Positions 1 through 28,337 of a stretch of 64,000 nt of DNA are shown here, one piece after another; the stretch's first letter is position 1, and every line of letters begins with the position of its first letter. The translations under genes and the position numbers were made by a program. This DNA is from an uncultured bacterium (GTDB lineage: Bacteria > Krumholzibacteriota > Krumholzibacteriia > JACNKJ01), in NCBI GenBank assembly GCA_963695095.1, contig CAVOFT010000001.1:2528001-2592000 (forward strand), in the 5' to 3' direction. The notes beneath the pieces are model-generated. The model searched no databases, was not told the origin of the DNA, and was given only the letters and a program-made list of their open reading frames with translations.

Positions 1-1049
1 GCCGCGCGGCCGTAGGCCTCGAGGGCGTCGGGGCTGTCCTCGGCGTGGCGCAGGCGGCTGCCGATGAAGACGAGGGTGTCGTCGGCATCGAGCAAGGCAT
101 CGCCGTCGCGGTCGAGGAAGTAGCGGGGCTCGGGAATCTGCGTGAACTCGGGCTCGCCGGCCGGACTCCAGGCGAAGCGCTGGCGCCAGATGGCGATCTC
201 GGCCAGCGGCGTGCCCAGGCCGATGTCCCAGGCCGCGAGCGCGGCGCCGCTCACGCCGTGAAGACCATCGGTGGTGGTGAGCAGCTTCAGGCTCGGCTGC
301 GCACTGCCTGCGCGCGGCCCGCGGGGCGATGCGGCGGGCAGGCGGCGCGCCCAGCCGCCGGCCGCCTCGGCATTGAGCAAGGCGCTCGCATAGACGGGCG
401 CGAAGAGCGGATCCGGCGTTCGCAGGGCCTCGCCGGCTGCGGCGCGTTCGGCCTCCCCGACACCCGGCCGAAAGCTGAGCGTGACGCGCAAGGCGCTGGC
501 CAGGCGCAAGCCGCGCGCGGGATCCCAGCCCACCGGCTCGACGATGAGCTCCTGCACCCAGAGATCGCGGAGCTGGCGCCGGGCGCCGAGGCGAACCCCC
601 AGCGGATAGCTCTCGCCAAAGGCGGCCGGATCGCGCAGGAGCTGCTCCAGGGGCGGCGCGCCGTCGGCGGGGCCCGCAGTCAGGGTCGGGAAGGGCAGCG
701 GCTCGCCGGCCAGGGCCTCGCTCCCCAGGAGCTGCCAGCTGAGCCGCGCCACGCTACCCGGCGGCAGGGCCACCTGACCGCGCCAGCGCGGGAGCAGGGG
801 CGCCCCCGAGGCGCTCGGTGTCTCGGCGATGGCGCTCTCGAGGCCGCAGCCGGGCAAGGCGAGCAGGAGCCCCTCATCGGTGGCCCGGATTTCATCCGCC
901 GTGAAGCGGAACTCCAGGCTGAGGCCGGCGGCATCGCTGGCCAGCAGCCGGCTCGCCGGCGGCAGGCCGCCTTGAGCGCCGGCGACAGCGGGCAGGACCA
1001 GCGCCAGGCCGGCCGCGGCGCAGGCAATGAGCAGTGTGCGAAGCTGCAC
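1..1049 (-). CDS. Secreted protein, probable peptidase C25 (gingipain/PorU-like) N-terminal region; runs off the left edge
   Basis: Not in the ORF track. Read manually: GGAGG RBS, GTG at 1049, signal peptide MQLRTLLIACAAAGLALVLPAVAGA|Q, then GAPLLPRWRGQVALPPG...LRDLWVQELIVEPVGWDP...LKLLTTTDGLHGVSGAAL...DDTLVFIG, which resembles a C25 propeptide followed by the PorU-type N-terminal segment. The + ORF 45..1076 is its in-register antisense shadow. The catalytic domain is not in the window. Confidence 0.6.
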   Translation of the reverse strand, partial: MQLRTLLIACAAAGLALVLPAVAGAQGGLPPASRLLASDAAGLSLEFRFTADEIRATDEGLLLALPGCGLESAIAETPSASGAPLLPRWRGQVALPPGSVARLSWQLLGSEALAGEPLPFPTLTAGPADGAPPLEQLLRDPAAFGESYPLGVRLGARRQLRDLWVQELIVEPVGWDPARGLRLASALRVTLSFRPGVGEAERAAAGEALRTPDPLFAPVYASALLNAEAAGGWARRLPAASPRGPRAGSAQPSLKLLTTTDGLHGVSGAALAAWDIGLGTPLAEIAIWRQRFAWSPAGEPEFTQIPEPRYFLDRDGDALLDADDTLVFIGSRLRHAEDSPDALEAYGRA

Positions 1050-1255
1050 GGATCCCTCCGGTCGGGGTGCGGCTGAAGGATCGCATCCAGCAGGGATGGC
1101 AGGCCGTGGGCGCCCAGGGATGCCGAAAGCTAGCATCGCGGCCGGGCGCTGTCCAGGCGCGGCGGTCGCCTGGAGAGAAGAAACGGCCCTCCCCGGCCCG
1201 CAGCAGCGGGGCAGGGAAGGCCATTGAGGTGATCCCGCAGTCGTCAGGAACGAAG

Positions 1256-1825
1256 CTAGTACAGGGCCTTGATCGAACCCCAGTTGCTCGCTTCGACACT
1301 CGTCTCGCAGGGACAATCGCCCGTGCAGTTGAAGGTGAAGTTCCAGCCATCGACGATATGCTCATCGAAAGTCGTCGCATCGACGATGATCACACCCAGG
1401 AGATTCGGCGGGTCGCCCTTGGCGATCGTCATCGTGTAGTCGCTACCTACCCAGGCGCCCAGAGGCAAGAACTCCACGTAGCCGAGCTGGAACACGCCGC
1501 TCGCCAGGTAGGGAGTCCAGGCGAGAGCCAGGTCGACCGTGATGTCGCCGATGGCCAGGGTGGTGGTCCAGTGCGGGGTGATGATGCCTCCTGCGGCCGG
1601 CCAGTTCGTCACCTTGAATTCCACGGCACTCACGCCGAGAATCTCCGCAGGATCCGCATAGCCCACGAAGTAGACGCTCACCGACACGTAGGGCGTGCTC
1701 ATGTCCGCGACGCAGTCGGTCATCGCCTGATCGTTGAACATGCCGATGTAGCTGGAAGCCTGGGCGGACGTGCCCGCGGCAACGAGCGCCAGAAGTGCAA
1801 GTAAGATGCGCATTTTCTTCATCAT
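1256..1825 (-). CDS. Secreted beta-rich protein with C-terminal WGSIKALY tail (paralog 3)
   Basis: GGAGGG RBS, signal peptide, homologous to the next two genes, Cys-rich linker then TSVEASNWGSIKALY*. Confidence 0.9.
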   Translation of the reverse strand: MMKKMRILLALLALVAAGTSAQASSYIGMFNDQAMTDCVADMSTPYVSVSVYFVGYADPAEILGVSAVEFKVTNWPAAGGIITPHWTTTLAIGDITVDLALAWTPYLASGVFQLGYVEFLPLGAWVGSDYTMTIAKGDPPNLLGVIIVDATTFDEHIVDGWNFTFNCTGDCPCETSVEASNWGSIKALY

Positions 1826-1889
1826 GACCCTCCTGCGGGTACCTCGGATAGATGGACAGTCATCACCGGAGTGCGGCCTTAGCGCGGGT

Positions 1890-1919
1890 AAACTAACACC
1901 CGGTTTTTCTGAGTGTCAA
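1890..1919 (-). promoter_or_regulatory. Putative sigma70 promoter for 1256..1825
   Basis: TTGACA-N18-TAGTTT on the minus strand. Confidence 0.45.
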
Positions 1920-1976
1920 CAGAAAGGGGAGCGCGGCCTCGCGGAAATCGGCGGCCGCGCAGCGGTAAGCCGCCGC

Positions 1977-2011
1977 AAATGAAGCGACCGCCGGCCGAAG
2001 CCGGCGGTCGC
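1977..2011 (-). terminator. Intrinsic terminator after paralog 2
   Basis: Perfect 12-bp stem GCGACCGCCGGC, TTCG loop (minus strand), followed by TTCATTT. Confidence 0.7.
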
Positions 2012-2038
2012 AATCGAAGACCCAGTTAACGATGCAGC

Positions 2039-2614
2039 CTAGTACAGAGCCTTGATCTGGCCCCAGGTGGCATCCTCGGTCGCGATGGTCGGCTGGCAAT
2101 TGCAGCCATACTCCAGGGCGCCCGTGCAGTTGAAGGTGAAGAAGTGGTCGGGCTCGCAGTCCCACTCGATGTAGTCCGTGTCGACCACGACCAGGCAGTT
2201 GCAATCGTTGCCGGGCATGATCGTCATGCGGAAGTCCGCACCCAGGTCGGCCAGCGCCAGGAACTGGAGCGTGCCCAGCAAGGCGACGGGGCCGGGGAGG
2301 GGCGGCGTGAAGGCCAGCGCCAGATCATGACCCATGGTACCGATCACGAGCGTCGTGTTCCACGTGGGGGTGATGATCGCGGCCGCGGGGCCGGGGAGGT
2401 TGTCGATGCGGAACTCGGCAGCCGTGATCGCAGGAATGTCGGTCTCCGGCAGGACCGCGAAGACATAGACATTCATCGGCACGAACGGCGTCAGGTCCGC
2501 CTCGCACAGCACGGCCGTGTCATCGGCGTACAGGCCGATGAAGGGCTGGCTCTGCGCGGCGGCAACACTGCTCATGGCGACCAGGAGCAGAAGAGCGGCC
2601 ATCAATTTCTTCAT
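2039..2614 (-). CDS. Secreted beta-rich protein with C-terminal WGQIKALY tail (paralog 2)
   Basis: AAGGAG RBS, signal peptide ending AAA|QSQ, tail IATEDATWGQIKALY*. Confidence 0.9.
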   Translation of the reverse strand: MKKLMAALLLLVAMSSVAAAQSQPFIGLYADDTAVLCEADLTPFVPMNVYVFAVLPETDIPAITAAEFRIDNLPGPAAAIITPTWNTTLVIGTMGHDLALAFTPPLPGPVALLGTLQFLALADLGADFRMTIMPGNDCNCLVVVDTDYIEWDCEPDHFFTFNCTGALEYGCNCQPTIATEDATWGQIKALY

Positions 2615-2828
2615 GTTGCAACTCCTTGAGATGTTTTAGAGAGTGGTGACAAGCCGAAGCTTGGTACCCATTGCCCAGTCTAGAGCCTGAGCCGCGCTCT
2701 CCGAACCCTGCTTGCCAGCCGGAGACGTCTCCAAGTACTCGGCCGGCATTCTGGGCGGGGTCGCCGGTAGGCCGACGACCCCTTTCAACCGCAAGTCGAA
2801 ACTAGTACAGAGCCTTGATCTGGCCCCA
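2039..2828. repeat. Identical 27-nt repeat encoding WGQIKALY-stop (2039-2065 and 2802-2828); variant copy at 1256-1282
   Basis: ctagtacagagccttgatctggcccca read at both positions. Confidence 0.85.
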
Positions 2829-3392
2829 AGCAGCCTCCTCGGCCGCGATGGTGGCCTCGCACTGGCAGGCACCATTGGGACCACCCACAACACAGTTGAT
2901 GATCATGCGCCAACCCTCGGCCGGAACCTCGGACGCGGTCTCGGCATCCACGACCACCAGGTTGCCGGCGCCCGAGGGCACGACTTCCATCACGAAGTCG
3001 GCGGCAGGAGGCACCTGACCACCGATGTAGGCGATGCTGCCCAGGTAGGCCAGGGGCGCCTCCAGGGGCGTCGTGAAGGCCAGCGCCACGCCGTCGGGCG
3101 TCATGATGTTGCCGATGACCAGGGTGGTGTTCCAGGCCGGGGTCGCGGCGAGAGCGCCGGTAGCCGCCTGGGTGACACCCGTGGCACCGAACTCGCAGGC
3201 GCTCATCGTGGGCACGCTGGGCTCGAGCAGGGCGACGAAGTACACGGTGACGGAGGCGTAGGGCGTGGTCCAGGCCTTCGAGCAGGTAAGCGCACCCTGC
3301 TCACCGAAGATCCCGATCACGTTGGCGGCACTCGCAGCACTGGCCATCAGGACCAGGCTCAGCGCCAAAGCAGCGATCACACTCTTCTTCAT
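2802..3392 (-). CDS. Secreted beta-rich protein with C-terminal WGQIKALY tail (paralog 1)
   Basis: GAGGAG RBS, signal peptide, tail IAAEEAAWGQIKALY*. Confidence 0.9.
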   Translation of the reverse strand: MKKSVIAALALSLVLMASAASAANVIGIFGEQGALTCSKAWTTPYASVTVYFVALLEPSVPTMSACEFGATGVTQAATGALAATPAWNTTLVIGNIMTPDGVALAFTTPLEAPLAYLGSIAYIGGQVPPAADFVMEVVPSGAGNLVVVDAETASEVPAEGWRMIINCVVGGPNGACQCEATIAAEEAAWGQIKALY

Positions 3393-3551: not shown

Positions 3552-4158
3552 CTAGGGGCAGCTGCTCACGTTGAAGAACCCAGCGAAGATACCGAAGTCC
3601 GCAACGGTCACGTTCGGCGAGCCGACGCTCTCGTTGTAGTTCGCGCAGTTGCCATCGCCCTGGAAGAAGCCGGCGAAGAGACCGAAGTCAGCGACGGTCA
3701 CGGTGCCGCTACCGTTCAGGTCGGGGCTGTTGACGCTCAGGGTCAGGTCGGCGATGACGTTGCCCACCGCAACCACGTTCATGCTGATGTTCGCGCACTG
3801 GGCGCCATTCACCACACCGCCGCGGGGCGTGCCCGTGAAGGTCGTGTGACCGGGGTCGGGCGCGAAGGTCGAGCTATCGGCGATGACGCCGCCCGCGCAC
3901 CAGACGACGAGGGGATCCTCGAGCCAGATGTCGGAGGCGATGATCTCGACGGGGTTGTTGCCCGAGTCGTTCACACTACACATCGATCGTGCGGTTGACA
4001 GGAACCACGAAGCTGTCCGCGCCGCCGGGCGCGATCGTCATGATACCGGGCGTGGCGATCGTCGCGGAGCTATTCGCGGGATCGACGATGCCGGCATTGG
4101 CGTTGGTGACCAGAAGGGCCAGCGCGGCCATCAGCACGAGAATCTTTCTGCTAGTCAT
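3552..4158 (-). CDS. Secreted protein with C-terminal dockerin/EF-hand-like duplicated motif; one-base insertion near 3979
   Basis: GGAGGTG RBS, ATG 4158, signal peptide. ORFs 3976..4170 and 3552..3983 join as IDVYVND if one base is removed. Repeats PDLNGSGTVTVADFGLF and NYNESVGSPNVTVADFGIF. Confidence 0.75.
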
Positions 4159-4366: not shown

Positions 4367-4396
4367 AGTATATCAGAGCTGGAAAATCGCTGTCAA
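4367..4396 (-). promoter_or_regulatory. Strong sigma70-type promoter of the envelope cluster
   Basis: TTGACA-N18-TATACT with extended -10 (TGaTATACT). Confidence 0.65.
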
Positions 4397-4508
4397 TCGG
4401 CATCCGCGCCTGACGCGAAATACTAACGGCATCTTCCCGAACCACTTACATGCCCCTTGCGGAAGGATCCGCTCGCAGGGACCGCGGCTGGGAAGGTGGG
4501 GAGGGGGG

Positions 4509-4581
4509 TGGGCGAAACAGGGCTCGAACCTGTGACCCCCTGCGTGTAAGGCAGATGCTCTCCCAACTGAGCTATTCGCCC
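4509..4581 (-). tRNA. tRNA-Val(TAC), CCA not encoded
   Basis: GGGCGAATAGCTCAGTTGGGAGAGCATCTGCCTTACACGCAGGGGGTCACAGGTTCGAGCCCTGTTTCGCCCA folds as a cloverleaf with anticodon TAC; it is followed by CCC. Confidence 0.95.
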
Positions 4582-6754: not shown

Positions 6755-7206
6755 GGTGCACTGTCCCCGCTGGCAGTCCCGGAGCCGCGCTGGGCGTCCA
6801 ACCAGGACTGCAGGATGAAGACCGCCGCGAGGCGATCCCAGTCGTGGCGCTCGCCGGCGGGAAAGGCCCGCCGGGCCGCCTTGGTCGTGAGCCGCTCGTC
6901 CCAGAGGGTGACGGGCAGGCCGAACTCCTCGCCGAGCCGCGCGGCGAGGCGGCGGGCGAGGGCGGCGGCCTCGCCTTCGCTGCCATCGAGATGGCGCGGC
7001 AGGCCCACGACGAGCTGCGCCACGGCGTAGTCCGCAATCAGTCGGCGCAGCAGGGCGAAGAAGCCGCCTCGCCCGCGCCGGAAGCTCTCCAGGCCCTGGG
7101 CCGTCAGGCCGAGCGCATCGCTGACGGCGAGCCCCACGCGCACAGTGCCCGGATCGATGCCCAAGACGCGCGGCCGCTCGGCGAGCGGCGCCGGTTCAGT
7201 GGGCAT
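6751..7206 (-). CDS. ruvX: YqgF/RuvX family nuclease
   Basis: LGIDPGTVRVGLAVSD, VVGLP, WDERLTT, DRLAAVFILQSWLD. Confidence 0.95.
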   Translation of the reverse strand: MPTEPAPLAERPRVLGIDPGTVRVGLAVSDALGLTAQGLESFRRGRGGFFALLRRLIADYAVAQLVVGLPRHLDGSEGEAAALARRLAARLGEEFGLPVTLWDERLTTKAARRAFPAGERHDWDRLAAVFILQSWLDAQRGSGTASGDSAP

Positions 7207-9439
7207 GGCCGCTCGCGCCCGCGGCGGGCAGGGGAGCGTCTTCCGCCGGACAGCCCTGCAGCACCAGCAGGGTGCAGTCGTCGTCGGGTTCGCCGGTGGC
7301 GCTGAAGCGGGCGAGATCCGCCAGCAGGTCCGCGATCACCGTCTCCGGCTCACCGTTCGAACGGCTGAGCGACTCGGCCAGACGGCTATCGGAATACTGC
7401 TCGCCGCGGCCGTTCTCGGTCTCGCTGACGCCATCGGTGAAGCAGACCAGGCGATCGCCGTCCCCGAAGGGGATGCTGTAGGTGGCAAAGGGCAAGCCGG
7501 GAAAGGCTCCCAGGACGAGGCCGCCCTCCTGCAGCGGCACGGTATGGCCGTTGGCGCGCGTGAGCAGGGGCGCCGGATGACCCGCGGAGGCGTAGTCCAG
7601 CACGCCCTCTGCGCAGTGCAGGCGACCCAGCCAGAGCGTGATGAAGCGATCGCGGGGGGTGTTCTCGTACATGATCTGATTGAGCTCCCGCAAGACCTCG
7701 CCCGGCGGCTGCGCGCGCCGGATGATGCTGCGGAAGGAAGCCTGCAGGGCCGCCATCAGCATGGCGGCGGGCATGCCCTTGCCCGAGACGTCGGCGATGA
7801 CGAAGTAGAGCTCGCGCTCGGTCTCGTGCCAGTCGTAGTAGTCGCCCCCCACCTGCCGGCTCGGGCGGCTGTGGCCGTGCAGGCGCAGGCCGGGCAGGCT
7901 CGGCTTCACCGTGGGCAGGAGCCCCAGCTGGATGCGATAGGCCAGCTGCATCTCCTCCTCGAGCAGGCGCTTGTCCAGGAGTTCGCTGAGCAGGGCCAGG
8001 TTGCGCAGGGTCGAGGTGAGCTGGCCGCCCAGCAGGATCAGGTGCTCGCGCTCCGCGCCGCGCAGGGCGCCGCCGGCCTCGCGGGGACCCAGGAGCAGGA
8101 GCCCCCGACAGCCGCCCTCGTCCACCAGCGCGAGCACCTGCTCCCAGGCCGGCGCTGCGGGCGGCTCCGGCAGGCTGTTGCGGTGGCACCAGGCGCGGAA
8201 CTCCCGCCATCTCAGCGGTTCGGTCAGCAGGCGCAGCAGCTCCTGCTGGCCGCCGAGGTCGAGAAACCACTCGGGGTCGGGCTCGGCGTCCTCGGCCCGC
8301 GGGCACTGCCAGACGAGCAGGCGGCTGCGGTCGACATGGAAGATGTCCCGCAGCACCGGCGCCAGGGCCGCCTCCACTTCCTCGCGCTCGCTGACGTCGC
8401 CCAGGCGGGCGCCCAGCCGGCGCAGGGCGTCGCGGCGGGGATCGCCGCTGTGGCCGAAGAAGAGGCGATCGAGCAGCTCTTCCACCCGGGTGAGCAGAGG
8501 TTGGAACAGGATGATCGCGAAGACGGTGAGGCCCGCTTCGAACAGCGCCCCCAGATTGCCCAGGTAGGCCGTGAAGAGGGCCTGGAAGCGGCCGAGCAGG
8601 AACAGGTACAGCAGCGCCAGCAGGAGCGAGACCGCCACGTCCATCACGCCGCGGCGGGCGAGCAGGCGGATGCGCAGGAAGCGGTGCCGAATGGCCGCAT
8701 AGGCCACCACGGCGCTGGAGAGGATCATCGAGGCGGCCAGCAGGTGAGGCTTCAGCGTGGCCGAGGGCGCGCCGCCCAGGAAGACCGGCAGCGCCTCGGC
8801 GATCAGATAGCCCGTCAGCGGCAGCGCGAAACCCAGGGTGAGAAAGAGCCGCTGCCGGCGGAGGTTGATGCCCCGGCGCAGTTCCTCGCTGCGGGCGAGC
8901 AGCACGAGCGCAGTGAGCCCCATGAGCAGGTTGACGCCGGGAAAGAGCAGCGCATGCACCGAGACACCGAGCGACCAGATGGTGTCCAGCGCCGACAGCC
9001 GCCCGCCCAGGCGCGTGGCGGTCTCCTGCACCGGCCCCAGGAAGGCCGAGGGCTCCACCCGCCGCACGGAGAGGATGAGCAGCAGGTGCACGACGTGAGG
9101 CAGGTAGAGCAGGGCAGGCAGCACGCGCAAGCGATCGAGGATGGCGCGGCGGCGAGGAAAGACGAGGCTGAAGAGCAGCAGGGTGGGGAAGAAGAATTCC
9201 CAGGTGTAGGAGAAGCGATCCAGGAAACCGCCGAGCAGGAGGATCTGCCCCTCGTCGCTCTTGGGCTGCACCAGGCCGACGCCGGCCAGGATCGGGGCGA
9301 TGCCCCCGAAGAAGAGCATGAAGGCGACGACGCGATGGAGCTGCTCGCTGCCGAAACGCCGCAGGAGCCCCAGGCCCCAGACGAGCATCAAGGACCCAGC
9401 TACAAAGTAGATGAGCGGCAGGAAGCTGTCAGGAGCCAT
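7196..9439 (-). CDS. Membrane-bound PP2C/SpoIIE phosphatase (RsbU-like) with N-terminal multi-TM and GAF-like regions
   Basis: VGGDYYD, IADVSGKG, FTDGVSE, DDCT. Confidence 0.9.
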   Translation of the reverse strand: MAPDSFLPLIYFVAGSLMLVWGLGLLRRFGSEQLHRVVAFMLFFGGIAPILAGVGLVQPKSDEGQILLLGGFLDRFSYTWEFFFPTLLLFSLVFPRRRAILDRLRVLPALLYLPHVVHLLLILSVRRVEPSAFLGPVQETATRLGGRLSALDTIWSLGVSVHALLFPGVNLLMGLTALVLLARSEELRRGINLRRQRLFLTLGFALPLTGYLIAEALPVFLGGAPSATLKPHLLAASMILSSAVVAYAAIRHRFLRIRLLARRGVMDVAVSLLLALLYLFLLGRFQALFTAYLGNLGALFEAGLTVFAIILFQPLLTRVEELLDRLFFGHSGDPRRDALRRLGARLGDVSEREEVEAALAPVLRDIFHVDRSRLLVWQCPRAEDAEPDPEWFLDLGGQQELLRLLTEPLRWREFRAWCHRNSLPEPPAAPAWEQVLALVDEGGCRGLLLLGPREAGGALRGAEREHLILLGGQLTSTLRNLALLSELLDKRLLEEEMQLAYRIQLGLLPTVKPSLPGLRLHGHSRPSRQVGGDYYDWHETERELYFVIADVSGKGMPAAMLMAALQASFRSIIRRAQPPGEVLRELNQIMYENTPRDRFITLWLGRLHCAEGVLDYASAGHPAPLLTRANGHTVPLQEGGLVLGAFPGLPFATYSIPFGDGDRLVCFTDGVSETENGRGEQYSDSRLAESLSRSNGEPETVIADLLADLARFSATGEPDDDCTLLVLQGCPAEDAPLPAAGASGHAH

Positions 9440-9462
9440 CCCTGTCTCCCCGGCCGGCTGCT

Positions 9463-9924
9463 CTAGTCAGAGGGCGCGCCTGGGCCCACCGACTTCTCCA
9501 ACTCGATGACAAACCGCCCGGCCTCATCCCGCCTGACGCGCACGTCGTCCATGATCTCCCGCATGATGAAGATGCCCCGCCCACGCGCACCCAGGAAGGA
9601 GGGATCGTCCGGCGCCGGCGCCGGCAGGCGCAGGCGCTCTTCCGTGAAGCCGGGGCCGCCGTCCGTCACCGCGATGCGGAAGCTAGAGTCGCTGAGGCCG
9701 AGTTCCACCGCCACGCGCAGGGCAGGGCTGAAGCGATTGCCGTGTTCGATGGCATTGCTGACGGCCTCGATGCTGGCGATGGAGATCTGATCGAGCTCCG
9801 CATCGCTCCACTCCAGCGCCTGGCCGATTTCCTGCAAGGCAGCGTTGATCACACCCAGCCAGCGGAAATCGCTGGGCAAGTCCCAGCGCAGGACGTCGAC
9901 GCTGCCGTTCGTGCTCGCGCTCAT
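9463..9924 (-). CDS. Anti-sigma factor Ser kinase (RsbW-like)
   Basis: EAVSNAIEHGN, DGGPGF, GRGIFIMREIMD. Confidence 0.9.
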   Translation of the reverse strand: MSASTNGSVDVLRWDLPSDFRWLGVINAALQEIGQALEWSDAELDQISIASIEAVSNAIEHGNRFSPALRVAVELGLSDSSFRIAVTDGGPGFTEERLRLPAPAPDDPSFLGARGRGIFIMREIMDDVRVRRDEAGRFVIELEKSVGPGAPSD

Positions 9925-9970
9925 GCGGTTGCTCCTGGCGCTCGGGTCCGCGCGCCGGCCACGGTCGTCC

Positions 9971-10312
9971 TCAGGAAACGAAGCTCGCCAGAGCCTCTTC
10001 CTCGCTCTCGTAGCTCTCGAAGATGCCGGCCAGCTTGGTGACCATCAGGATCGACTCGATGCGGCCGGAGATGTTGGCCAGCTTGAACTGCCCACCGGCG
10101 TCCTGCACCGAGGTGTAGCCGGCGATCAGGATGCCCAAGCCCGTGCTGTTGATCCAGCTCACCTTGCCCAGGTTGACGAGGATCTGCTTCTTCCCCTGAC
10201 CGATGTGGTTCTTCACCAGCTCATGGAAGGTGTCGGCGTCCGGGCCGCCCATCACCTGACCGCTGATGTCGAAGACCACCACCTGCCCCGCCTCGCGCGT
10301 CTTGACCTTCAT
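9971..10312 (-). CDS. STAS anti-anti-sigma factor (RsbV-like)
   Basis: Start MKVK overlaps the rluD stop (ATGA); WINSTGLG phospho-site motif. Confidence 0.9.
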   Translation of the reverse strand: MKVKTREAGQVVVFDISGQVMGGPDADTFHELVKNHIGQGKKQILVNLGKVSWINSTGLGILIAGYTSVQDAGGQFKLANISGRIESILMVTKLAGIFESYESEEEALASFVS

Positions 10313-11316
10313 CCAGCCACTCCTTGTTCGTCTGGCGTCGGGCGCGCGCACCCCAGGAGCTCCAGGGCGGCGCGCATGTCGGGCGGCAGCGCGGCCGTGA
10401 AGACCTGCGGCTCGCCACTGAACGGGTGAACGAAGCTGAGCCGCCAGGCGTGCAAGGCCTGGCGGGCGAGCAAAGCCAGCAGCCTGCGCAATCGCTCGCG
10501 CTCGTCGCGGCTCTCCCCCTCGGCGCGGCCGCGCCGGCCGCCGTAGAGGGGATCGCCCAGCACCGGATGGCCGCCATGCGCCAAGTGGACCCGGATCTGG
10601 TGCGTGCGCCCCGTCTCAAGCTCCAAGCGAATATACTCGAAGCCCGCAAGACTGTCTATGCGCCAGTAGCGCGTGCGGGCCGGCCGGCCCCCCGCCGGCA
10701 GCACGGCCATTCGCTTGCGGTTGCGCGGGTCGCGGCCGATGGCCCCGCCCAGTTCGCCCGCGGCGGCCGGCAGCTGTCCCCAGACCAGCGCGAGGTACTC
10801 GCGCTTCACTTCCCGCGCCGCGATCATCGCCGTCAGCCGCCGATGCGCGCCATCGGTCTTGGCGACGAGCAGCAGGCCGCTGGTGTCCTTGTCCAGCCGG
10901 TGCACGATGCCCGGCCGCAGGCGATCGCCGATGCCGGCCAGGCCCTCGAGATGGTAGAGGAGCGCATGCACCAGCGTGCCCTCGCGGTGGCCGGGCGCCG
11001 GGTGCACGACGAGCCCGGCCGGCTTGTCGATCACCGCGAGATGCTCGTCCTGGTAGAGAAGCTTGAGGGGAATCGGCTCCGGGGCGAGGTCCAGGGGCAG
11101 CGGAGCCGGCAGGCGCAGGCAGAGGCGCTCGCCGCCCTTCAGGATCTCGCCTGGACGGCCGAGCCGGTCGCCCAGGCTGACGGCCCCTTCGCGCACCAGG
11201 CGCGCCAGGGCGCTGCGGCTGCGCTCGGGCACCGCGGCCGCCAGGAAGCGATCCAGGCGCTGGCCCGCCGCCGCCGCCGGGACCGTGAAGCGCCGCTCCT
11301 CGCCGCCGGCGCCCAT
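10309..11316 (-). CDS. rluD: RluA/RluD family pseudouridine synthase
   Basis: S4 domain RLDRFL, KPAGLVVHP, HRLDKDTSG, TGRTHQIRVH. Confidence 0.92.
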   Translation of the reverse strand: MGAGGEERRFTVPAAAAGQRLDRFLAAAVPERSRSALARLVREGAVSLGDRLGRPGEILKGGERLCLRLPAPLPLDLAPEPIPLKLLYQDEHLAVIDKPAGLVVHPAPGHREGTLVHALLYHLEGLAGIGDRLRPGIVHRLDKDTSGLLLVAKTDGAHRRLTAMIAAREVKREYLALVWGQLPAAAGELGGAIGRDPRNRKRMAVLPAGGRPARTRYWRIDSLAGFEYIRLELETGRTHQIRVHLAHGGHPVLGDPLYGGRRGRAEGESRDERERLRRLLALLARQALHAWRLSFVHPFSGEPQVFTAALPPDMRAALELLGCARPTPDEQGVAG

Positions 11317-22428: not shown

Positions 22429-22601
22429 GCTCGGCTCCTTGGCGCCTGGGTAAACGGTGCTCGAGCACCATAGCAGGCCCGCGGCTCCGGTTCAACTCAG
22501 TGAACAGCGCTAACTGACTATCGGCCCGGCGCCACTTGGTGCCGGGCGCTCCATGCGCTAGACTTTGAGCCTGCTACCCTCAGTCCCAGGAGGACCCGAC
22601 C

Positions 22602-24293
22602 ATGCTCCGCCCCCTGTCCCGACTCGCCGCGGCGGCGCTCCTCGCCGCCCTCGCCCTGCCGGCGGCCGCCGAACTGGCCACTGCCGCCCGCTGCCTGACA
22701 CCCACCCTGCCCAGGCCAGGAGCGCCCGCAGAGCTGACGCGCGCCCGCCTCGAGGCCGAGGGCCGCTGGGTCGCCAGCGGGGACCCCGACCGCAGCCCCC
22801 CCGCCGACCCCCAGGTGGGCGACACCTGGCTCTGGTACATCTGGGACCTGGGCGGCTTTCCCACGGCCACGCTCAAGCCCTGCACGGTGCGCGGCATGGG
22901 CGACAACTGCTATGTCGTGGTCGATGACGACGAGTGGGGAGTCGGCATGGACCAGGCCGACGTGGACCGCATCGTCGAGAATTTCGAGAACAGCAGCCCG
23001 GGCAACTGGCCCGATCAGGGCATCTGGGATCTGAACACCGGGCACTTCGGCAGCCCGCCCAACCCCTTGGACGGCCTGGACCGCGTGTTCCTGCTCTACT
23101 ATCGCTTCGACATCTCGGCGGACGGCTACTTCTGGGTCTTCGACCAGTACCCCGACGGCACCCAGTCCTTCGCCAGCAACGAGGCCGACGTGGTCTACCT
23201 GGCCGTGGACAACGGCGACCCCGGCGGCGACTACATGCTGGCCGTGGCCGCCCACGAGTTCGAGCACCTCATCCACTATGCCCGCGACACGAACGAGGAG
23301 TCCTGGCTGGACGAGGGCTTCGGCGAGCTGGCGATGTGGCTCTTCGGCCATCCCGACACGATCTCGAGCTTCAACGCGAATCCGGACAACAACCTCATCG
23401 ATTTCGCCGGCAACTGGGCCGACTACATCCAGACCTACCTGTGGAGCCTCTACGTCTACGAGCAGTTCGGCGGCCAGCCCTTCATCTGGGACGTCGCGCA
23501 CAGCGCGCTCAACGGCATGGCCTCCTACAACGCGGTGCTGGCCGCCCACGGCGCCGGCATCGCCACCGACACCGTGTTCCGCAACTGGGCCGTGGCCAAC
23601 TTCCTGGACGATCCCGCCGTGCCGAACGGCGAGTTCGGCTATCTCGGCGAGACCCTGCCCGCCTTCATCCCCTGGCGGACGATTGCCGGCTACCCGGCGG
23701 GAGGCACTGGCGGCCTCCAGGCCTGGGCCGCCGAGTACATGCGCTGCACGGGGGTGGACGGCGTCCTGCACCTGGACTTCAACGGCCAGGATGTCCGCAA
23801 CTTCCGCGTGGCCCTGCTCGGGCTGGACGCCACCCTGCCCACCCTGGTCGAGTTCCTCACCTTGGACGCCCTCCAGGACGGCAGTGTCGACTTCACCGAC
23901 GCCCAGGGCTATGACGAGGTGATCGTCGCCGTGGCCAACGTCGCGAGCGCGAGCGCCAGCTACACCTACAACTTGAGCGTTCTGGCCACGCCCGCCGGCG
24001 AGAGTGCGCCGGCGGCGACCGCCCTGGCCGGCGCCCAGCCCAATCCCTTCAATCCGGCCACGCGCATCCACTTCACGAGCGCGGGCGAGGAGCGGCTGCG
24101 CCTGGAGGTCTTCGCCGCCAGCGGCCGCAGCCTGCGCCTGCTCGCCGACGAGGTCTTCCCGGCCGGGGCCCATGTTCGCGACTGGGACGGCCGTGACGAG
24201 GCCGGTCGCGCCCTGCCGGCCGGCATCTACCTCGCACGCCTGTCCGGCGATACCGGGCAGCTGGGTGCCGCCAAGCTGGTCCTGCTGAAATGA
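22602..24293 (+). CDS. Secreted zinc metallopeptidase (M30/M6-like) with FlgD-Ig/T9SS-like CTD
   Basis: Signal peptide, AHEFEHLIH...WLDEG, CTD PNPFNP...WDGRDEAG...GIY...KLVLLK. Confidence 0.85.
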   Translation: MLRPLSRLAAAALLAALALPAAAELATAARCLTPTLPRPGAPAELTRARLEAEGRWVASGDPDRSPPADPQVGDTWLWYIWDLGGFPTATLKPCTVRGMGDNCYVVVDDDEWGVGMDQADVDRIVENFENSSPGNWPDQGIWDLNTGHFGSPPNPLDGLDRVFLLYYRFDISADGYFWVFDQYPDGTQSFASNEADVVYLAVDNGDPGGDYMLAVAAHEFEHLIHYARDTNEESWLDEGFGELAMWLFGHPDTISSFNANPDNNLIDFAGNWADYIQTYLWSLYVYEQFGGQPFIWDVAHSALNGMASYNAVLAAHGAGIATDTVFRNWAVANFLDDPAVPNGEFGYLGETLPAFIPWRTIAGYPAGGTGGLQAWAAEYMRCTGVDGVLHLDFNGQDVRNFRVALLGLDATLPTLVEFLTLDALQDGSVDFTDAQGYDEVIVAVANVASASASYTYNLSVLATPAGESAPAATALAGAQPNPFNPATRIHFTSAGEERLRLEVFAASGRSLRLLADEVFPAGAHVRDWDGRDEAGRALPAGIYLARLSGDTGQLGAAKLVLLK

Positions 24294-27300: not shown

Positions 27301-27510
27301 GAGCGTGCCGCCGTCGGCGTCGTCGAGATCGAAGTGGATGTCCACGAGGCCGCTGCCGTCCGCGCGCTGGCTGAAGCCGAGACCGCCGACGCTGGGCTCG
27401 GCGGCGCGCAAGAGCGCCGGCAGCAGGGCTGCGGCCAGCGCCAGCCCCAGCGCCTGCGAGACCGGCGCCCAGAGCCGGCGGCCGGTGGCGCGCTGCGGTG
27501 AGCGGCTCAT
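24373..27510 (-). CDS. Secreted multidomain protein: FGE/SUMF1 + FN3-like + GH32/GH43-like beta-propeller
   Basis: YRLPTEAEWEYA; WTASDPDGGALSYDLY; DHCL..YHCFH, WAPQV, CRDPFV, ESPQL. Confidence 0.75.
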   Translation of the reverse strand: MSRSPQRATGRRLWAPVSQALGLALAAALLPALLRAAEPSVGGLGFSQRADGSGLVDIHFDLDDADGGTLFVSVEASADGGLSWLAPCYRLSGDVGAGVPALAGRHAVWNAGLDLPGVELAALRLRVLASDEAAARDAQRLPGGSFLMGETGTRLVTLTRDFWLDREEFSNAEMLDLLAWAKGAGLLSMHGNLVVAEPSGILILDLGSAISELSYSAPTGNYSLRQAPAAAAAYPAGYDPGPHPVKNLSWRAAAIICNWLSQRAGLPLAYSTSSWICGGGDPYTAAGYRLPTEAEWEYAARLADGRLYPWGNAPPDCERCNGQPGATACLGWSTPGGALAAGASLLGLADLAGNVGEFCNDWWGSLGGGQFTNPKGPTTGFTRIVRGGDFVSGVAALKATARGSLLPSQASPTTGLRVARSAANSFPRPPSAPSPAAGAILIATEAQLAWTASDPDGGALSYDLYVGGALVAADLAQPSYLLEGLVPDSVLSWQVLARDVGGLEQWGPLWTFEVWSPPMGEGLRFDFDQPYFASEPGEQLADHCLVFAEGRYHCFHTYKRAGGEAAQLGHISSPDLRRWTREPDILPVAEGEPWEAWSIWAPQVIANPLPGPAWLMLYTGVQGEGRPQQIGLAFSDDLHSWWRADAAHEQLNPFYHPTAAWASWTDDEGAPDWAAPCRDPFVFQEGGIWRLLATGKAPDRSGLILLAEAAPDSFAFLGLDAEAPLLLRETLEQPESPQLVPVLHADGQRRWHLFYSQANGTWHQMAADPWGGPQGWSGAANAGDYLGSLGYTAAELNPLEGRWVFSQHFQDASENRYLLRFAGLDFEATGDGRPCLIPAGGVAGIQGTDADRLAPALVWELMGAPLGHAFEHQPTWGDNPLFDLERGYSSGMTGNSYLATYERHPRPDTGEPGTHYEDCSRVGWIRSAPFRLRHNRLRLKVGGGDALDSEFVALVRADNELVLFRATGEDSHVLSPRVWDAESLRGTWVYLVAADLSADEWGVIALDEVVAFEDPDGSAPGEGPDPEDPRTLAELLDAAGFPIEP

Positions 27511-28253
27511 TTGAGGAGCACCAGCTTGCGTGCGAGCTGCGTCCCGCCGGCGCTCAGCCGCGCGAAGTAGATGCCGCTGGCCAGGCCCCGCGGCTGCCAG
27601 TCGAGTTCCAGCCAGCCGGGCTCCCGGTGGCCGTCCCAGAGTCGCGCCACCTCGCGCCCGCGCACGTCGTGGATGCTCAGGCGCACCCGGCCCGCTTGCG
27701 GCAGGCCGAAACGCAGGCGCGTCGAGGGATTGAAGGGATTGGGCCAGTTGGGCGCGAGGGTGAGCAGCGCGGGCGGCAGCGCATCTGCCGGGCTATCCGG
27801 AGTGGCGATGCGATGGGCTTCGCTGGCGATCTGACCCAGGTTGCCGTAGGCGTCGGCCAGGGCGAGCGTCCAGCGGCAGTCGAAGCTGGGCGTTTCGGGC
27901 ACCAACCAGGCGTAGGCGAAGCTCGGCGGCTCGCCGAGGCCGGCGGCGAGGGAGAGCGAATCCTCGTGCACGGCGAGGCCGTCCACGCGGATCGTGAGCG
28001 CCAGCGGCCGCGCCGTGTCGGGCAGGGCCGGCAGGTTGGCCTCCGTCACGGACCAGCCGATCTCGACGAGCTCGCCGCCCAGCAGGATCGCCCCCGGCTC
28101 TGGCGCCAGCAGCGTGAAACGCGGAGCCAGGGTGTCCAGGGTGCCGGCGGCGCTCAGCCCCAAGGCCGTCCCCGCGCGCGCGCCGAGGGCCGGCAGCGCG
28201 AGCAGGGCGAGGGTCGGCAGCAGCGCCGAGCGCAGCGAAGGGCAGAGGGGCAT
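27507..28253 (-). CDS. Secreted Ig-like protein with T9SS-like CTD
   Basis: Signal peptide, NWPNPFNPST...LASGIYFARL...KLVLLK; stop overlaps the next start. Confidence 0.8.
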   Translation of the reverse strand: MPLCPSLRSALLPTLALLALPALGARAGTALGLSAAGTLDTLAPRFTLLAPEPGAILLGGELVEIGWSVTEANLPALPDTARPLALTIRVDGLAVHEDSLSLAAGLGEPPSFAYAWLVPETPSFDCRWTLALADAYGNLGQIASEAHRIATPDSPADALPPALLTLAPNWPNPFNPSTRLRFGLPQAGRVRLSIHDVRGREVARLWDGHREPGWLELDWQPRGLASGIYFARLSAGGTQLARKLVLLK

Positions 28254-28337
28254 GGTGGCTCCGGGCAGGGCCGGCGCGGGCCGGCCGTCAATCCATCGAG
28301 TATACGGCATTGGGGCCGCCCAGAGAAGCGGGGCCGC

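Follow-up and report, generated by a model that had tools for sequence, protein, structure and literature searches.

A short C-terminal tail on exported proteins of a Krumholzibacteriota bacterium as a candidate sorting signal linked to the type IX secretion system

We analysed a 64,000-nucleotide (nt) stretch of the genome of an uncultured Krumholzibacteriota bacterium (GenBank assembly GCA_963695095.1, contig CAVOFT010000001.1, positions 2,528,001 to 2,592,000; the window), in which three tandem genes for exported proteins with a common C-terminal tail lie directly upstream of a gene for a C25-family relative of PorU. The host genome, which holds the window, has 3.64 Mb, 70% G+C and 93.5% completeness, and gene counts in it are approximate because its assembly holds many frameshifts. 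PorU is a C25-fold sortase of the T9SS (type IX secretion system), which cleaves the C-terminal domains (CTDs) of T9SS cargo and attaches the cargo to the cell surface. The open frames bear out an earlier note, made from the letters alone, that the three paralogs are co-oriented on the minus strand, begin with signal-peptide-like stretches and end in WG(Q/S)IKALY-stop. For the middle gene, homologues that carry names are labelled Krumholzibacteriia, Krumholzibacteriota or Latescibacteria, and its nearest Atlas clusters are for the most part Krumholzibacteriota. The features are as follows (aa, amino acids).

4367..4396, minus strand: promoter-like site of sigma-70 type upstream of the cluster (11/12 consensus, 18-nt spacer, extended -10)
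3552..4158, minus strand: dockerin-like gene with signal peptide, Ig (immunoglobulin)-like body and duplicated EF-hand-like C-terminal module
2802..3392, minus strand: cohesin-family protein 1, 196 aa, with signal peptide and tail
2039..2614, minus strand: cohesin-family protein 2, 191 aa, with signal peptide and tail; modelled as a beta-sandwich with a free C-terminal helix
2039..2086, minus strand: tail of protein 2 (linker half, helix half and stop), by the tail profile
1984..2011, minus strand: terminator-like hairpin between proteins 2 and 3, 12 pairs, a consensus match only
1256..1825, minus strand: cohesin-family protein 3, 189 aa, with signal peptide and tail
1..1049, minus strand: 5' part of the PorU paralog, here PorU2; whole gene at C1:2524937-2529049 of the host genome (G000), 1,370 aa
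60188..60916, plus strand: fourth tail-bearing protein, an open frame unrelated to the three, with the F variant of the tail

The tail consists of about 15 residues in two halves, a T-[APG]-[TV]-[EA] linker and an 8-residue helix with a near-fixed Lys, and the consensus of 63 tails in the host genome reads T-[APG]-[TV]-[EA]-x-x-[ST]-[WFLIM]-[SG]-x-[IV]-K-[SA]-L-Y-stop. By a position profile with a threshold of 11 bits, 63 of 3,138 gene-like frames have the tail at their end (11.6-52 bits; next score 5.8 bits), and only three matches fall further inside a frame; eight of 49,868 other stop-to-stop segments passed, five of them apparently genuine tails on fragmentary genes. The tail is not limited to the family in which it was first seen, as the 63 proteins belong to 37 unrelated families. 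Pfam named beta-helix, lamin-tail, PPC and MAM-like domains in a few of 25 tail-protein bodies, most being unnamed. By a crude heuristic rule a signal peptide was found in 52 of the 63 proteins vs. 885 of 2,475 other genes, in agreement with the expected association of the tail with exported proteins; the 11 failing the rule include several in which inspection shows a signal peptide, and others that are fragmentary. The Lys stands at its fixed helix position in 62 of 63 tails in a proteome with an Arg:Lys ratio of four to one, and its retention therefore suggests a specific reader.

Parts of the first description had to be revised. The tail had been called near-invariant; genome-wide its W is not fixed (W 31, F 15, L 8, I 5, M 3, V 1; n = 63). 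The Cys-rich stretch taken for a shared linker of the signal belongs to the cohesin-like domain, and other endings follow the same stretch. E followed by A or D four residues before W was found in two paralogs, the remaining one having E-E. The statement that the tail is not a transmembrane segment, LPxTG, PEP-CTERM or T9SS CTD agrees with the tail logos, with the scan of 95 tails against NCBIfam, which gave no relevant model and one chance match, and with the lack of a CTD in all 63 proteins. In the literature we found neither the tail motif nor the cluster described, in a search that left subscription journals mostly uncovered, so that T9SS cargo tables outside Bacteroidota may bear on this; searches by motif spellings gave, among the matches listed, papers all unrelated to the tail, and cohesin and sorting terms are absent from the main text of PMC4454575.

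Tail proteins of the host genome are small (median 204 aa vs. 566 aa for CTD proteins, with approximate start calls). A size limit on tail cargo was rejected, since tail proteins reach 1,230 aa. A supposed loss of the cut site in lipoprotein cargo was discarded as well, with two real cases among five pattern matches in 302 tails. At another place in this genome (L005:7433-10970; C1:2.926-2.930 Mb) a row of three tail genes, whose linkers contain Arg and two of which are lipoprotein-like, sits upstream of a gingipain-like C25 cargo gene.

By sequence, the linker half connects the tail with the T9SS. The host genome has 148 FlgD-type matches and 162 terminal CTDs by a purpose-built profile, and the profile of the first half of the tail (its opening five residues) scored at least 3 bits at the pre-CTD linker in 73 of 145 CTD proteins, compared with 9 and 10 at two control positions. 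At the putative cut site, [GSA][VLIT] was found in 40 of 63 tails, the background being 6.9%; PorU cut sites are given as X/(GSA)(VLI), e.g., in HBP35 and RgpB, in the accessible parts of PMC4560394 and PMC10202324. By motif, the linker half fits PorU cut sites, which is a match at the level of sequence. The distance from linker to W is fixed. Tail and CTD also exchange: beta-helix paralogs of the host genome have the same linker followed by either one, and 22 of the 63 tail proteins have a CTD-bearing homologue in the same genome, while none (0/63) has both endings. The cohesin domain continues in other genes into the linker, an FN3-like domain and a CTD. In the 150 highest-ranking cohesin-family representatives the ending is the tail in 103, a CTD in 32 and never both, and 12 of the 15 unclassified ones show a tail variant by eye. 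Comparison of the tail profile with the CTDs of the host genome was blank, the 22-column profile being a weak query.

The gene downstream of the tagged paralogs, first recognised by a C25-like region, encodes when taken in full a complete C25 domain (PF01364 at 632-1030, E 1.6e-43). A check for the His-Cys dyad found His890 and Cys928, aligned with the PorU pair (6ZA2) and invariant in 44 aligned rows of orthologues; the active-site signature is Q-x-H in 46 of 46 and C-H in 44 of 46 rows shown. The protein ends in a FlgD-type terminal CTD (FlgD_ig at 1288-1350 of 1,370 aa), before which the T-A-V-E-like linker is missing, as in canonical PorU, and PorU's own CTD is described as uncut in the accessible text of PMC10202324. 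For the model of residues 245-1370 (pLDDT 89.6), the top Foldseek match was PorU 6ZA2 (E 4.7e-41, 1,283 columns), with a different domain arrangement as judged from TM 0.41 and a root-mean-square deviation (rmsd) of 18.8. PorU2 stays under the curated cut-offs of NF033707 (86 of 420 bits) and of NF052324, a model itself named 'PorU2' (39 of 450 bits). It is followed by murQ, not porV, and the canonical porU-porV pair lies at C1:2.16 Mb. In a quick tree the canonical PorU clade had 98% support (SH-aLRT, a likelihood ratio test) with PorU2 outside it, and 22 PorU2-type rows grouped at 87%, one row being unplaced. PorU2 was detected in all 101 genomes sampled from the phylum, mostly in single copy. 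A second copy in the host genome (C1:1280339-1284401, plus strand) is about 50% identical, broken up by frameshifts and has no tail genes upstream; two close relatives have two copies as well. Prediction of a complex between residues 245-1034 of the C25 protein and a cohesin-tail protein scored 0.00 twice, which speaks neither for nor against an interaction.

The adjacency of tail genes to the C25 gene, seen first in this cluster, is conserved. Among 29 orthologous loci, 24 were evaluable (five have no upstream sequence), and a tail gene lies directly upstream in 22 of them, including two variant tails recognised by eye. Two phyla share the order dockerin-like gene, tagged cohesins, PorU2: in 20 longer loci tagged cohesins were found upstream in 18, the dockerin-like gene in 14 and murQ downstream in 13, and another set, Eisenbacteria-labelled genomes among it, has tail genes upstream of PorU2 in 11 of 15 evaluable loci. 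In Eisenbacteria-type loci L228-L235 two genes for PPIC-type peptidyl-prolyl isomerases are inserted between the tail genes and PorU2. Single-domain tagged subunits beside PorU2 come as two to five in tandem, and the dockerin-like gene can stay beside PorU2 where the cohesins are missing (L187, L237). Inside the host genome a tail gene lies within 5 kb upstream of 2 of 13 C25 domains, which is weak by itself.

Each of the 101 genomes sampled from the phylum has the tail, with 5-77 matches each as lower bounds. An exact-pattern scan of genome contigs gave at least 124 stretches and at least 80 loci with the tail, and the labels among the listed tail records are Eisenbacteria, Krumholzibacteriia, Latescibacterota, Zixibacteria, Ignavibacteria, Kapaibacterium, Bacteroidia and Fibrobacteraceae. 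Fifty of the listed loci, from 49 genomes chosen by having the tail, several of them in the window's own phylum, made up an outside set. In this set 28 genomes have 3-84 tails and 21 exactly one. The proposed co-occurrence with the T9SS translocon protein SprA was borne out: SprA was found in 49 of 49 outside genomes (48 over the cut-off) and in 0 of 14 controls. A full-length PorU2 orthologue is present in 26 of the 28 multi-tail genomes and in none of the 21 single-tail genomes. PorV as a partner tracking the tail was rejected, as it is present in 49 of the 51 genomes of the phylum of genome G111 regardless of the tail.

In that phylum all 20 tail genomes have a PorU-sized C25 frame (1,230-1,490 aa), and the tail was found in 20 of 32 genomes with a PorU-sized gene vs. 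0 of 19 for which only a longer C25 type is listed. These 19 have 6-21 CTD matches, and the five checked with PF01364 have one long C25 each. The longer type, about 1,800-2,000 aa, was seen in L305-L309, L296 and L297; the His/Cys pair of the L305-L309 proteins is intact, and their genomes have no other C25. The genomes of this phylum are kin, so that the counts probably reflect few independent events.

Single tails belong to a few families. In a Bacteroidota sample 19 of 121 genomes had a tail match, 18 of them exactly one, and the 19 loci with a full frame represent one family with a signal peptide, an FN3-like domain and a near-invariant tail. This single-copy family (L067, L069, L272-L290) occurs in Ignavibacteria-type genomes, often directly before maf, and has 602 homologues; its tail is far more conserved than its body. 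Ignavibacteria, the cultured Melioribacter roseus and Rosettibacter primus among them, have exactly one tagged protein each. Zixibacteria-labelled genomes have a different single tail gene. In loci L025, L031, L070 and L101 of this type it lies between rex and a STAS/RsbW operon (names by eye), and in two of the loci PP2C-like genes follow it; an operon of similar kind (names by eye) lies at 7196-10351 of the window, a few genes upstream of the cluster. A Bacteroidia membrane protein (L051:1000-1533) ends in a tail-like helix and lacks the usual linker and signal peptide. Its gene sits between tsaE-like and alanine dehydrogenase-like genes, and the helix is probably unrelated to the tail.

According to structural models, the three tagged paralogs are cohesin-fold proteins, which had been missed in the earlier note, as had their position behind a dockerin-like gene. 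Both outer paralogs share 41-42% identity with the middle one, for which the model (mean pLDDT 90.4; 70 rows) shows a beta-sandwich with a loose, low-confidence C-terminal helix at 184-190. In VIA-align the top 17 rows (Z 8.2-12.8) are cohesins or cohesin-containing entries, the best being cohesin 2vo8 (Z 12.8, rmsd 2.7, 123 aligned residues), and Foldseek gave 12 matches at E <= 0.001, the 11 listed being cohesin entries without exception. No family was found for the paralogs in Pfam, PF00963 included (E up to 1), or in NCBIfam; identity to solved cohesins is 5-15%, and the nearest named Atlas cluster has PF00963 in 16% of its members (score 0.88). In total, the host genome has 13 cohesin-domain matches, some of them in CTD-bearing multi-cohesin proteins, and only two dockerin-like genes. 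At C1:3378-3387 kb (L010, minus strand) one or more frameshift-broken scaffoldin-like genes carry at least seven cohesin-family domains alternating with Ig-like repeats and end in FN3 and a CTD.

The dockerin-like gene of the cluster has neither tail nor CTD and scores 14 bits with dockerin_GC, under the 29-bit cut-off; its orthologues have two D-x-N-x-x-G-type repeats, with family scores under the cut-off as well. Its frame is broken near 3976 in the assembly; 14 of 20 loci have intact orthologues. At 3976 a relative's RNA contig (4343-2520) shows a one-base difference, and two more RNA contigs across this position have one gap each, at a place that was not located; the break is possibly an assembly error or a strain lesion. 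RNA contigs of relatives from three metatranscriptome runs cover the dockerin-like and cohesin genes at depths that cannot rank genes, and the little contig cover over the C25 gene and the upstream genes proves nothing. The promoter-like site (4396-4367) is a consensus match only, with one found vs. 0.6 expected in shuffles. A tRNA-Val(TAC) gene (4507-4581, minus strand) lies between a small membrane-protein gene and this site. The second dockerin-like paralog, which is intact, lies away from the cluster at C1:1551241-1551930 (minus strand), and two CTD-bearing genes lie elsewhere in the window (22569-24293, plus strand; 27507-28337, minus strand).

The host genome encodes SprA, PorV and canonical PorU, together with 11 PorV-family matches. 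PorV-family genes were seen on C1 at 295.9, 743.7, 1351.9, 1515.2, 1822.8, 2083.4, 2395.5 and 3033.5 kb, and several of the barrels directly follow variant-CTD genes, like the cargo/shuttle pairs of type B; one more gene at 1893.6 kb is split and has no variant-CTD neighbour. T9SS genes in other phyla of the FCB (Fibrobacteres-Chlorobi-Bacteroidetes) group have already been suggested in print, as far as the accessible texts go. Compared with T9SS cargo with type A CTDs, which leaves the cell by SprA/PorV and is joined to lipopolysaccharide (LPS), with PorV as shuttle and PorU as sortase (C25; PDB 6ZA2; NF033707), the tail proteins are alike in having a Sec signal peptide plus a C-terminal signal, the same linker motif at the predicted cut site and swaps of tail and CTD on the same domain families, and the neighbouring protein has the PorU fold, the His/Cys pair and a terminal CTD without linker. 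Unlike a CTD, which is a seven-stranded beta-sandwich of 70-90 aa, the tail has about 15 residues with a helix, and unlike canonical PorU, PorU2 has no adjoining porV, scores under the equivalog cut-offs and falls outside the canonical clade.

Other sorting signals provide further parallels. Type B and C CTDs with cognate PorP/SprF-like shuttles, in the available text of PMC12618676, are likewise alternative T9SS signals with dedicated handling, which recalls the PorV-family matches of the host genome; those signals are folded and stand beside a shuttle gene, whereas the tail cluster has no barrel gene and none is linked to the tail. LPXTG/sortase, PEP-CTERM/exosortase, GlyGly-CTERM and MYXO-CTERM systems, so far as the sources at hand describe them, also use a short C-terminal tag on many unrelated exported proteins, and as in our cluster a candidate transpeptidase gene can adjoin the tagged genes. 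Unlike these tripartite signals, in the same partial accounts, the tail has no transmembrane helix or basic cluster, and the candidate enzyme is a secreted caspase-fold C25 protein. With cohesin-dockerin systems (cellulosome scaffoldins; non-cellulosomal cohesins, e.g., PDB 2vo8 and 2xdh) the cluster shares the cohesin fold and perhaps a duplicated EF-hand-like module upstream, but here the cohesins are single and without a Pfam match, dockerin genes are few, and the host is a diderm with a T9SS-like system.

Taken together, we lean towards the reading that the tail is a minimal T9SS-linked C-terminal sorting signal cut by a PorU-family sortase, as sequence comparison suggests, and it is best filed as a real, previously undescribed sorting-type signal, a variant of T9SS/PorU sorting. 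Tail proteins would first be exported by Sec via the signal peptide, the tail helix would then be bound by a conserved protein of the T9SS-like machinery, and passage through SprA would need an adaptor or shuttle, as a 15-residue tag lacks a folded CTD. A PorU-family cysteine transpeptidase would cleave T-[APGS]-[VT]-E behind its Thr, and the cut protein would be attached to a surface amine acceptor or released. By means of the cluster, single cohesin modules would be displayed at the cell surface, where dockerin-bearing proteins could dock; that tagged cohesins would bind dockerins is suggested by gene adjacency. The proposal in the earlier note, a minimal signal processed by the neighbouring C25 protein, gains from the wide cargo, the SprA link and the conserved adjacency, and loses the neighbour as the required enzyme, since tails occur in genomes without its orthologue and a canonical PorU-PorV pair lies elsewhere in the host genome. 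Because tails occur where PorU2 was not found (Latescibacterota-labelled genomes, Ignavibacteria), it is not an obligatory reader, and canonical PorU would have to cut the tail there. PorU2 is the leading candidate enzyme in the window's phylum and in Eisenbacteria-labelled genomes; that it is the working enzyme in the window's phylum, at least for the adjoining tagged cohesins, is possible and rather doubtful.

Several observations weigh against a sorting signal of this kind. The co-occurrence counts were made among kin and in genomes picked by the tail, and a PorU2 orthologue was not found in tail genomes G111 and G113 nor in the 21 single-tail genomes. G111 has 14 real tails with the linker, and its single C25 gene (L242 / L294), beside porV, has Ser at the catalytic Cys position, so that the protein is either inactive as an enzyme or uses serine instead; 87 or more CTD matches were seen in this genome despite the Ser-bearing sole C25. 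In its phylum 20 of the 51 genomes have the tail and none has a C25 in the PorU2 score range (best 390 bits), while 12 of the 32 genomes with a PorU-sized gene have no tail detected. As only 19 of 121 Bacteroidota genomes have a tail, a PorU-type T9SS does not need one. The system of the host genome does not appear to be a complete canonical T9SS, because no match to GldM (TIGR03517) and none over the cut-off to GldK (TIGR03525) was found, in a search where the GldM control matched nowhere and PorL/PorN were not included. The cluster order may partly be just old, since the housekeeping neighbours (rluA, STAS/RsbW/PP2C genes, ruvX, mltG, larE) are syntenic too. A second anchor would be odd for the few tail proteins that are lipoproteins. 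T9SS export is taught as requiring a folded CTD. This requirement is stated in the accessible part of PMC11285876, and PorU cleavage is called sequence-independent in that of PMC4804311; in view of both, the linker match is possibly a mere scar of domain shuffling.

The tail helix could instead be an uncut amphipathic anchor on the periplasmic membrane face, with the T-A-V-E stretch as a spacer inherited from CTD cargo, which we regard as unlikely. This would explain the lack of confident packing between the predicted helix (184-190) and the body, the mean hydrophobic moment of the tail (0.47 vs. 0.32 for shuffles), tail position 0 taking any large hydrophobic residue, the matching helix of the unrelated membrane protein of L051 and the Ser in the sole C25 of G111. 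The pattern presumably resembles membrane-targeting helices of MinD/FtsA type. Yet the helix has only 8 residues and a mean moment under the 95th percentile of shuffles (0.585), Lys is not swapped for Arg (62 of 63), the linker keeps its fixed distance from W, and the single-copy Ignavibacteria-type tail is near-invariant while the body diverges. We consider it still less probable that the tail is a non-covalent docking peptide for a scaffold or carrier, such as cohesins or a CTD-bearing adaptor, serving assembly or export in trans. The 13 cohesin-domain matches of the host genome, some in CTD-bearing multi-cohesin proteins, vs. two dockerin-like genes, and the small size of tail proteins, would suit such a role, but tails occur on proteins up to 1,230 aa, the cut-site-like linker is left unexplained, the operon's dockerin family was not found in 21 of 21 single-tail genomes, and comparison of the tail with this family was blank, a weak test given the short profile. 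Polymerisation of tagged subunits by PorU2 in pilus-sortase style, with the conserved Lys or the mature N-terminus of the next subunit as acceptor, is very improbable: the tandem of two to five single-domain subunits beside a transpeptidase-type gene, the near-fixed Lys, the active-site signature specific to PorU2 and the use of peptide amines by PorU when the lipid acceptor is missing (reported in the accessible text of PMC4560394) fit it, but cleavage would remove the segment with the Lys, proteins of 37 unrelated families end in this same tail, and some PorU2 loci have no tagged cohesins upstream (L187, L196, L233, L236, L237, L247).

A bolder form of the sorting-signal reading, in which a dedicated PorU2 reads the tag, itself lacking a membrane span and a CTD, and covalently anchors or polymerises single-cohesin subunits into a phylum-wide surface scaffold in diderm bacteria, seems improbable to us. 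If true, the scaffold would display dockerin- and tag-bearing proteins and would be a sortase-built scaffold or pilus outside Gram-positives, made from T9SS parts with no canonical motor. The cluster offers a candidate enzyme and substrate pair, and the tail could serve as a compact display tag. If the tail is a sorting signal, a 15-residue substitute for the CTD on up to about 80 proteins per genome would change the folded-CTD rule, and thousands of hypothetical proteins in Krumholzibacteriota, Eisenbacteria and Latescibacterota would be annotated.

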